Assembly: GCA_951406725.2 (NCBI GenBank)
Contig: OX597830.1
Span: 65,596,001 to 65,660,000, forward strand
DNA from: Octopus vulgaris
Taxonomy: Eukaryota
DNA length: 64,000 nt
Direction: 5' to 3'
Part shown: piece after piece, positions 4,801 through 7,800 of the stretch
Layout of the letters: each line of letters opens with the position of its first letter
How positions within the stretch are numbered: the stretch's first letter is position 1
The notes under the pieces: model-generated
Databases searched by the model: none
Told to the model about the DNA's origin: nothing
The model's input: only the letters and a program-made list of their open reading frames with translations
Made by a program: the position numbers and the translations under genes

Positions 4801-7800
4801 CTGAGGACAGCAGATGGATGAAAAACATAGGACGAATATATGAACAAATCAATATTGAGATGTTCATGCAGTCTTGATAAGGTGACAGTTTAAAATTACA
4901 TAATCATTGTTTATATTTGTGGTTATATCTTTTTCACCTCGTTAAATGATTTATCTGACCCAGCTGTTGTTGAAAATGTTGTTACTGAGGGGAAAAAATG
5001 TATAAAGATTGCTGATATTTTCATTCATTCATATATATATATGTGTGTGTGTGTGTGTGTGTGTGTGTGTGTGGGTGTGTGTGTGTGTGTGTGTGTGTGT
5101 ATGTGTGTGTGTATCATCATCATCGTTTAATGTCCACTTTCCATGCTAGCATGGGTTGGACAATTTGACTGAGGTCTGGTGAACCAGATGGCTGCACCAG
5201 GCTCCAATCTTGATCTGGCAGAATTTCTACAGCTGGATGCCCTCCCTAATGCCAACCACTTCAAGAGTGTAGTGGGGGCACTTTTACGTGCCACCAGCAC
5301 GAGGGCCAGTCAGGCGGTACTGGCAACAGCCACACTCAAATGGTGCTTTTTATGTGCCAATATATCTGTTTGACTGTGAATGTTTGCAAGTGTATGTATA
5401 TATATAGATAGATATATAGATATGGATATATATATATACAAATATATATATAGATAGATATATACAAATATATATATAGATAGATAGATAGATAGATATA
5501 TAGATATGGATATATATATACAAATATATATATAGATAGATATATAGATATGGATATATATATACAAATATATATGTAGGTCCCGGGTTGAGTCGGGGTT
5601 AACCACAGTAAATAAGGTACTCAATACATAGCAGAGTAAATTAATTTATTTTATAGAAGGAGCTTCTACAGAACTAGAACTGTTTCATTCAAATGAAATC
5701 ATCAGGAAGCTCCTGATGGTTTCATTTGAATGAAACAGTTCTAGTCCTGTAGAAGCTCCTTCTATAAAATAAATATACAAATATATATATATATATATAG
5801 ATAGATAGATAGATATAGATATGGATATATATATATAAATATATATATATATATATATATATATATATATATATAAAAAGAATATGAGGAGTTTAGTTCA
5901 CTGGTGATCTAAACAAATTGGTATGCCATGTAAATGCTATTCGTTTGGTCATTTATTCATGTTTCTTGAAGTTTCTAATTCTTATGACATAAGCAGGAGC
6001 GGCTGTGCGGCAAGTAGCTTGCTTACCAACCACATGGTTCCGGGTTAAGTCCAACTGCGTGGAACCTTGGGCAAGTGCCTTCTACTATAGCCTCGGGCCA
6101 ACCAAAGCTTTGTGAGTGGATTTTGTAGACGGAAACTGAAAGAAGCCTGACATATATATGTATATATATATGTATGAGTGTATATGTTTAGTGTGTCTGT
6201 GTTTGTCCCCCCAACATCGCTTGACAACCGATGGTGGTGTGTTTACGTCCCCGTAACTTAGCAGTTTGGCAAAAGAGACCAATAGAATAAGTACTAGGCT
6301 TACAAAGAATAAGTCCTGGGCTCGATTTGCTCGACTAAAGGTGGTGCTCCAGCATGGTCATAGTCAAATGACTGAAACAAGTAAAAGAGAGAAAAGAGAG
6401 TAAGCTATATATATGTGTGTATATGTATATATGTGTGTAATGTTATGGAAATATAATGTATGCATGTAAAATAATGTATGTATGTATGCATATGTAAGTG
6501 ATGTGCTTCTTATTAATGTAAATGGTGTAATTATTATTGCATATTCTGTTGTAGTTCTCCAAGACCAGAATCCATGATATCATTACGGAGTACATCAACT
6601 GAATCTTCAGTCGTTAGCGTCAAAGATCAAAATGGTAGGTCAATAATTTTAGTGTTATATCATCACCCCCATCATCATCTATGATCACTGCTGCCATCAT
6701 CACGGCCGTCGCCATCATCACCATCACCCCCCCCCTATCACCACCACCACCATCATTTCCATCCTTGCTACCACCATCATCATTACCGTTATCATCTTCA
6801 GCAGCAGAAATAGCAGCAGCATAATCACCACCACCAACCTCCCTTACCATCATCATCACCACTACCAACCTCCCTTGCCATCATCATCACCACTACCACC
6901 ATCATCACTACTACCACCATCACCACTACCACCACCAACATCACCGCTACCATTGCCACCATCATCACCACTACCACTATCATCGTCACCACCACCACAA
7001 CCACCATCATCACCACCACAACCGACGTCACCACCACCAACACCACCACCATCATCATCATCATCATCATCATCTTCGTCATCATCATTTAATGTATAAT
7101 TAATGTTATTCATGACATAATTTTATATTATTTGCTCTTTACTGATGCAAAGATGAAAGGAAAATGTGCCTCTCACAGGATTTGAATATCAAGTCCTCAC
7201 TATTAGCCGACATTGTTTTGGTAATAAGCACCAGGGTATCACTGGTACTTATTTCATTTTTATGAATTCTTGGATTAATGGCAGGTGATTGCTGGAATCT
7301 GTTGGGCATCAGACAAAATACATACTTTGTGGTATTTAGTTTCACTTACTTATATTCTGAGTTCAAATCCTACATAGGTCCATTGTGCCTTTAATGAAGG
7401 TTGTTAAAGTAAACACAGGTGTTGATGCAGTTGATTATCCCTCAGAAGGTGATGCCGTAGCATGGCCACAATTCAATGACTAAAACCATTACTCTTTTAC
7501 TCTTTGACTTGTTTCAGTCATTTGACTGTGGCCATGCTAGAGCATTGCCTTTGGTCGAGGAAATCGACCCCAGAACTTATTCTTTGTAAGCCTTGTGCTT
7601 ATTCTATCGGTCACTTTTGACGAACCACTAAGTTACGGGGATGTAAACACACCAGCATCAGTTGTCAAGCGATGCTGGGGGGGATAAACACAGACCAATG
7701 AGCTTCTTTCAGTTTCCGTCTACCAAATCCACTCACAAGGCTTTGGTCGGCCCAAGTCTATAGTGGAAGACACTTGCCCAAGGTGCCATGCATTTCTACT

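Follow-up and report, generated by a model that had tools for sequence, protein, structure and literature searches.

An intron of the furry gene of Octopus vulgaris carries a 197-bp palindromic insert, spanning 5576 to about 5772 of the 64,000-nucleotide stretch of DNA that we analysed (the window). The insert belongs to a high-copy repeat family. We consider it probably a stub of a Hydra-type Penelope-like element (PLE), in which two 3′-end cDNAs were joined head to head and the hammerhead motifs are predicted to be masked by the hairpin thus formed. The kind of element, an inverted PLE end with a hammerhead, is already known; what is new is this family as a member of it.

The insert, its target site and its repeat family

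An earlier note on this DNA had described a palindrome at 5644..5774. The palindrome itself is as described, with 64-bp arms, a 3-nt loop (5708-5710) and two mismatched pairs, 5672/5746 and 5699/5719, but the insert is larger and reaches left to 5576. This position is the distal 3′ end and lies 91 nt from the predicted hammerhead cleavage site. The target is an AT-rich compound TA/TAGA microsatellite, and the insert is bordered by what appears to be a target-site duplication of 14-16 bp, where 2 of the 16 bases are ambiguous with the arm and the microsatellite blurs the length. Although the duplication is read from the occupied site alone, four other ACAAAT units of the microsatellite continue into AGATAG and the ACAAAT at 5564 alone enters the insert instead, which argues for a real target duplication. 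The coordinates of these features are collected in Table 1.

Table 1. Features of the insert and of the surrounding furry gene, in window coordinates
Feature	Position	Strand	Remarks
Furry coding exon upstream of insert	3607..3786	+	tblastn with P0014, E 3.5e-8
Left copy of target-site duplication	5560..5575	+	16 letters recur at 5773-5788
Tail	5576..5643	-	68 bp, at one end only, outside the palindrome
Bulged hairpin, candidate cis-signal	5617..5637	-	ACUC/GAGU outer stem, inner stem, UU bulge, then AC
Left arm	5644..5707	-	private substitution at 5672 (loop III)
Type I hammerhead, intact core	5658..5714	-	CUGAUGA 5705-5699, GAAA 5686-5683, predicted cleavage 5667/5666
Head-to-head junction AGGA-AGC-TCCT	5704..5714	.	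lacks one base relative to the perfect joint of run X3, centred on AAGCTT
Right arm	5711..5774	+	outer end is the mirror image of 5644-5646, where family copies recurrently end
Mirror hammerhead on furry sense strand	5713..5760	+	CUGAUGG at 5713-5719, stem I broken by junction
Right copy of target-site duplication	5773..5788	+	first 2 bases also fit the right arm
Furry coding exon downstream of insert	9300..9407	+	tblastn with P0014, E 3.7e-10

The host gene was recognised with P0014, a protein retrieved by phmmer that has two furry-type Pfam domains (MOR2-PAG1_N and _mid). Its matches run collinearly on the plus strand at 1744, 3607, 9300, 11372, 11888, 15760, 18422 and 19760 and flank the insert, which therefore sits in a furry intron, with furry on the plus strand. 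No second copy of the insert was found elsewhere in the 64-kb window. Head-to-tail tandem units are absent at this locus, and the family contigs are too short to judge other loci.

Other repeats occur in the window. For example, a second non-microsatellite palindrome is found at 17167-17249, with 41-bp arms and a 1-nt loop, within an AT-rich stretch of about 570 bp (16740-17308) that is flanked by (TA)n on either side and contains internal repeats of 76-79%; a relaxed hammerhead scan of this stretch gave no match. A minus-strand frame within it recalls what we take to be the end of a GIY-YIG domain, and the stretch is possibly another PLE-type inverted stub. Positions 18835-19600 hold a GC-richer tandem array with a unit of about 60 bp, which ends in a long (TA)n run and contains long plus-strand frames, and a mariner-type transposase frame is present on the minus strand at 28402-29271 (Pfam PF01359, E 1.5e-23; nearest relative 91% identical).

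Words of the element were detected in 21 of 24 listed sequencing runs, from 11 studies and 5 organisms. We aligned one arm and the tail (5576-5714, 139 of the 197 bases) against four of the runs, denoted X1, X2, X3 and X9, which represent at most three samples. The alignment returned 1641, 5755, 337 and, in X9, 39 matching contigs, no single one of which spans the whole insert, and revealed a dispersed high-copy family with recurrent 3′ ends whose tail is covered by family contigs in all four runs. Only four positions vary at 3% or more across the runs, and none of them lies in a hammerhead stem or core; the family is too young to show stem covariation. Position 5651 is polymorphic, with A accounting for 35, 46, 72 and 11% of depth across the four runs; both arms of the insert share one allele there, which is uninformative from a single copy. 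Loose ends in (TA)n were located at 5640, 5644 or 5647 in all four runs among the ends listed, where they comprise at least 4+15 contigs in X1, 11+12+5 in X2, 1+1 in X3 and 1 in X9.

At the opposite side, family depth plunges past 5711, the last bin holding 7-16% of the preceding one. The joints differ among copies. In X3, at least three contigs cross 5711 into 13 letters that are exactly the mirror arm with its core intact, so that the joint is a perfect palindrome centred on AAGCTT, and in X2 at least four contigs turn back at 5698, inside the stem II palindrome. Past 5711, X1, X2 and X9 show mixed letters (agreement 0.56-0.75), and no upstream pLTR consensus emerged among the loose ends listed beyond that position. 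The ratio of arm to tail in summed depth was 1.8, 2.4, 2.6 and 1.5 in the four runs; summed contig depth is no copy number.

Comparison with the family also revealed that each arm of the insert carries one private substitution. In the left arm the base at 5672 is private, as the family has G on the plus strand in 96-99% of depth. At 5699 no other letter reaches 3% in the family, so that CUGAUGA is the family state and the A-to-G change at 5719 is therefore private to the right arm.

Pattern scans, exact or gapped, of the metagenome, prokaryote genome and viral contigs gave no match to the element. Three of its 11-nt motifs were absent from the available text of the Craig et al. 2021 supplement, and two were absent from the available supplement of a paper on O. 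vulgaris repeats (PMC13282606), the repeat library of which lies outside the text searched. The latter paper reports 190 PLE families in O. vulgaris, of which 31 were recently active. We found no published description of the family or of its tail hairpin in the literature on octopus hammerheads, Penelope inverted ends and Hydra hammerheads; Repbase or Dfam may hold one.

Hammerhead motifs and their predicted masking

The minus strand was said in the earlier note to form a type I hammerhead, and this was borne out: the core elements CUGANGA, GAAA and UH are all in place, and stems II and III, but not stem I, are closed. Stem I comprises 9 bp and is particular to this copy, stem II is a 12-nt region with a 3-bp stem and a U.U at its base, and stem III consists of 4 bp (ACAG/CUGU) capped by an 8-nt, CUAG-centred loop. 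A strict descriptor, which was composed with knowledge of its match, found this motif as the sole match in the 64-kb window, as compared to 0.005 matches per shuffled window (200 Markov shuffles), and in a relaxed scan the match at 5705 again stood alone in the window. No Rfam family matched at gathering score in the 64-kb window, and no hammerhead family was present among the 28 weak matches at 5500-5900; matches to miRNA families were set aside as generic hairpin likeness below gathering score. ATGs within the motif run at once into stops. On the plus strand, the mirror copy indeed lacks both an intact core and a matching stem I, as had been reported, since it reads CUGAUGG and retains 2 contiguous stem I pairs. 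The A9G change is expected to impair hammerhead cleavage.

The motif had also been likened to minimal hammerheads, a description that does not fit a 4-bp stem III and a U.U in place of G10.1-C11.1. The same U.U had been thought to make activity uncertain, a caution that is less grave than feared. Of the 26 Hydra-clade rows in File S2 of Craig et al. 2021 (PMC8557442, in the part available), 14 have U.U as the basal pair of stem II, and, according to the available text of PMC7229834, an axolotl hammerhead with U.U at the same place self-cleaves 22% in 1 h. By analogy, the isolated minus motif may well be active. In ViennaRNA, tertiary energies not included, a slipped stem II is favoured by about 2 kcal/mol and the isolated 57-mer has a predicted hammerhead share of 0.005. 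Dimerisation through stem-loop III is favourable in prediction (-14.8 versus 2 x -2.3 kcal/mol).

Within the insert, both motifs face their own mirror images. Either strand of the 131-nt palindrome folds to a hairpin of about -98 kcal/mol, and the predicted share of the minus hammerhead is 1.4e-45 in both the 131- and the 197-nt RNA. Indeed, as few as 9 nt of the mirror arm already lower the predicted share about 1500-fold, and for a model in which the palindrome is perfect and the core intact it is 7e-51. In context, neither copy is thus predicted to fold as a hammerhead, and both would be masked by the 64-bp hairpin.

The tail hairpin and published relatives

The tail contains a bulged hairpin in the hammerhead sense, 29 nt past the cleavage site. 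The motif was spotted by eye, chosen after the likeness had been noticed, and tested later. When built from three published Hydra ends, it has its sole window match at 5637-5617, and the two mismatches of this match form one compensatory pair (G-C to A-U). Such a match arises in 1 of 20000 tail shuffles and at about 3e-4 per 68 nt in Markov shuffles; the predicted stability of the hairpin is low (-1.7 kcal/mol). Among six new Hydra consensus sequences the bulged hairpin is present in three, degenerate in one and not seen in two: it lies past the hammerhead in Hydra-2_Amil and Hydra-2_Ajap and at the 5′ start in Hydra-1_Ajap, and the degenerate form is that of Hydra-1_Crog. In two published Hydra ends it is placed 38 and 43 nt past the cleavage site, as counted by eye. 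The available text of Craig et al. (PMC8557442) does not mention this hairpin. Judged from sequence, the likeness to Hydra-clade ends is suggestive. At 5637, X9 has a T-to-C change in 72 of a depth of 826, as compared to less than 0.1% in X1 and X2; editing is one possible cause and an older allele in which the Hydra G is restored is another, and we do not count the change as evidence.

Other short features were noted in the same region. A short hairpin at 5653-5667 covers the cleavage site and the 3′ strand of stem I, and one X9 contig lacks 12 bases there. SINE-like copies at 6036, 23881, 30356 and 53700 share 16 bases (87.5%) with 5579-5594, probably by chance (E 1.7).

The closest likeness is to the Hydra-clade PLEs of Craig et al. 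(PMC8557442). In the sections of that paper available here, these elements have a canonical hammerhead in sense orientation close to their 3′ end; it often reads CUGANGAU...UGAA and has U.U at stem II, and its stem III is of 4 bp (ACAG/CUGU in 4 of 26 rows). A (TA)n target is preferred by 26 of 27 Hydra families, inverted truncated copies occur, and the proteins are characterised by RWK, DKT, a CxCX5C linker and no CCHH. Some of the consensus sequences contain the bulged hairpin, as described above. According to the same source, a PLE insertion frequently bears a truncated copy in inverse orientation at its 5′ end, together with a tail that is confined to one end. The insert has the near-3′ canonical hammerhead and the (TA)n target, both of which also occur in other PLE clades and are not diagnostic alone. 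It differs in its loop III, which has 8 nt here versus 1-3 nt in all 26 rows, in its tail, which is 68 bp versus 30-40 bp in the published PLE tails, and from the octopus family Hydra-1_Obim in its hammerhead. By sequence the insert resembles a Hydra-type PLE end; clade membership is unproven for an element known here from an ORF-less end alone.

Beyond this clade, the insert has the traits of EN+ PLEs, namely an inverted 5′-truncated copy, a junction palindrome, a one-sided tail and an AT-rich target duplication. For example, the Penelope elements of Adineta vaga, as presented in the available text of Arkhipova et al. 2013 (PMC3846280), likewise have head-to-head inverted pLTRs with palindromes at the junctions, a tail at a single end and a target duplication, although the latter is 8-10 bp rather than 14-16 bp, and the insert is only about 200 bp long with no ORF. 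Those authors take the junction palindromes as signs of self-priming. Poseidon elements offer a further parallel. In the part of Frangieh et al. 2024 available (PMC11167929), Poseidon in vitro cleaves AT-rich DNA on both strands and extends each of them, two RT starts define the tail, and the template is mostly uncleaved RNA. In Poseidon PAc of Anolis the hammerhead lies about 85-92 nt upstream of an RT start, a spacing close to the 91 nt between cleavage site and distal end in the insert. The PAc motif overlaps the start of the ORF, unlike the motif in the insert, where ATGs run at once into stops. The minimal hammerheads described from metazoan PLEs (Cervera and de la Pena 2014, PMC4209133, in part) are also of type I and located in PLE repeats, but the insert has a real stem III and no G10.1-C11.1; that paper had already drawn attention to PLE hammerheads in Schistosoma that lie close together on opposite strands. 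Finally, the non-LTR retrozyme HHR_Amex2 of the axolotl (PMC7229834, in the text available) is, like the insert, short, non-coding and high-copy, with a type I hammerhead and U.U at the base of stem II, whereas retrozymes are head-to-tail tandems that give circular RNA and the insert is head to head. The earlier reading of a Penelope-type inverted terminus is thus supported by the target duplication, the one-sided tail, the recurrent (TA)n ends and the Hydra-like hammerhead and tail.

Proposed formation of the insert and possible double-stranded RNA

The following course of events would account for the insert as a PLE stub. The GIY-YIG endonuclease of the element would make a cut in the (TA)n target that is staggered by 14-16 nt, and each DNA end would then prime reverse transcription, the distal start being at 5576, with the tail, and the proximal start at about 5644, just before the tail hairpin. 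Synthesis of both cDNAs would halt just past the hammerhead, left uncleaved in the template, and the two would then anneal at stem I, where the AGCT is self-complementary. One central base would be lost, or would never have been present, which would leave a minus stem I of 9 bp and a broken plus stem I, and each arm would afterwards gain one neutral substitution. The corresponding stretch of the furry pre-mRNA would be a dsRNA hairpin and not a ribozyme. Two separate primings are favoured because the outer limit of the short arm coincides with a recurrent family end, and for the same reason a pure snap-back with a random stop loses ground; snap-back of one cDNA followed by a microhomology jump to the target is possible. 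Since the joints vary, they argue against a single master palindrome. Within the PLE-stub explanation we place two-primer joining slightly above an even chance, snap-back self-priming at a substantial but smaller share, and the copying of a master palindrome at a small remainder. Several observations count against the explanation as a whole: the insert comes without a linked RT or GIY-YIG ORF, the ends past 5711 are mixed, loop III and the tail are longer than in the published elements, the hammerhead is unlike that of Hydra-1_Obim, both hammerhead-breaking lesions fall on the sense copy, and Arkhipova et al., in the text available (PMC3846280), favour self-priming.

Some observations would suit a palindromic double-hammerhead unit that is itself a non-autonomous element, with a retrozyme- or SINE-like master, which a PLE protein would move in one piece. 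The arm has about twice the depth of the tail, similarity ends at 5711, the perfect joint recurs, and the loose ends listed contain no upstream consensus. However, joints at both 5711 and 5698, mixed letters past 5711 and three short ends suggest copy-by-copy formation, the reverse transcriptase would need to copy the -98 kcal/mol hairpin, and the head-to-tail tandems that define retrozymes in the available text of PMC7229834 are not seen here; we think such a unit unlikely. A MITE or foldback DNA transposon, in which the hammerhead letters would be incidental, would explain the long inverted arms, small size, high copy number and TA-rich target, and is in keeping with the lack of an Rfam hammerhead match. 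We hold it to be very improbable, as the inverted repeat leaves 68 bp uncovered on one side, the duplication measures 14-16 bp and is not short and fixed, a descriptor match is rare by chance at 0.005 per window, and the insert shares two separate RNA features with Hydra-clade PLEs in the sense orientation.

The PLE-stub explanation also bears on the suggestion, made in the earlier note, that the inverted terminus lost its sense hammerhead through selection against cleaving the furry pre-mRNA. Both damaging differences, at 5719 and the central base, do hit the sense copy, and the antisense change sits in a loop. If the centre change and A9G were later mutations, the crude, post-hoc chance of both falling on the sense copy is 0.015-0.067; the chance of at least one sense lesion and no antisense lesion is 0.18-0.29. 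Moreover, Xenopus retrozymes are under-represented in introns according to a preprint (10.64898/2026.07.22.740005), the available text of which contains no strand test. Yet the hairpin is predicted to mask both copies, even when the palindrome is perfect and the core intact, and an intact sense copy would therefore likely be harmless and its damage would likely need no selection. Further, the lost plus stem I amounts to a 1-nt difference at the junction, a spot that is variable among copies, so the central difference may date from integration, and each arm has acquired one private change. With one locus and three changes considered post hoc, the contrast between an intact and a disabled copy is not supported as a sign of selection. 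The selection reading is weak and, in our estimate, improbable; a single locus cannot settle it.

Porath et al. 2017 (PMC5625713) describe exceptional hyper-editing and dsRNA potential in octopus; in the text available they omit octopus from the repeat analysis and tie the signal in frog to a palindromic repeat. That repeat, the palindromic Harbinger of Xenopus, is a self-folding sequence of about 200 bp like the insert; it is a DNA transposon with shown editing (PMC5625713), whereas the insert is a candidate substrate by its fold alone. No octopus repeat is named as a source of dsRNA or editing in the available text of PMC9989829 and PMC9068888. Contigs less than 90% alike to the element make up 8 of 39 in X9, which we guess to be an RNA run, versus 29 of 1641, 309 of 5755 and 4 of 337 elsewhere; this higher divergent share is a hint only, as older copies or another individual would also explain it. 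As to expression, no RNA run among the 24 listed is on record as holding the element, the RNA status of X9 being a guess. An abundant octopus Hydra-type PLE family that seeds introns with 64-bp dsRNA hairpins, through two-primer integration guided by a conserved tail hairpin, and that acts as a main source of octopus dsRNA and hyper-editing, is a speculative proposal to which we give only a slim chance.

A single locus of this kind is an ordinary retroelement stub, and the family is more useful. As it is young and abundant and has a diagnostic position at 5651, arm-to-arm agreement in each copy could tell two-primer joining and self-priming apart. A concrete candidate for an RT-binding or start signal, perhaps clade-wide, is the hairpin that the tail has in common with Hydra-clade elements. 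In addition, a self-folding, high-copy repeat provides a testable source of octopus hyper-editing, which Porath et al., in the text available (PMC5625713), left unassigned to repeats.
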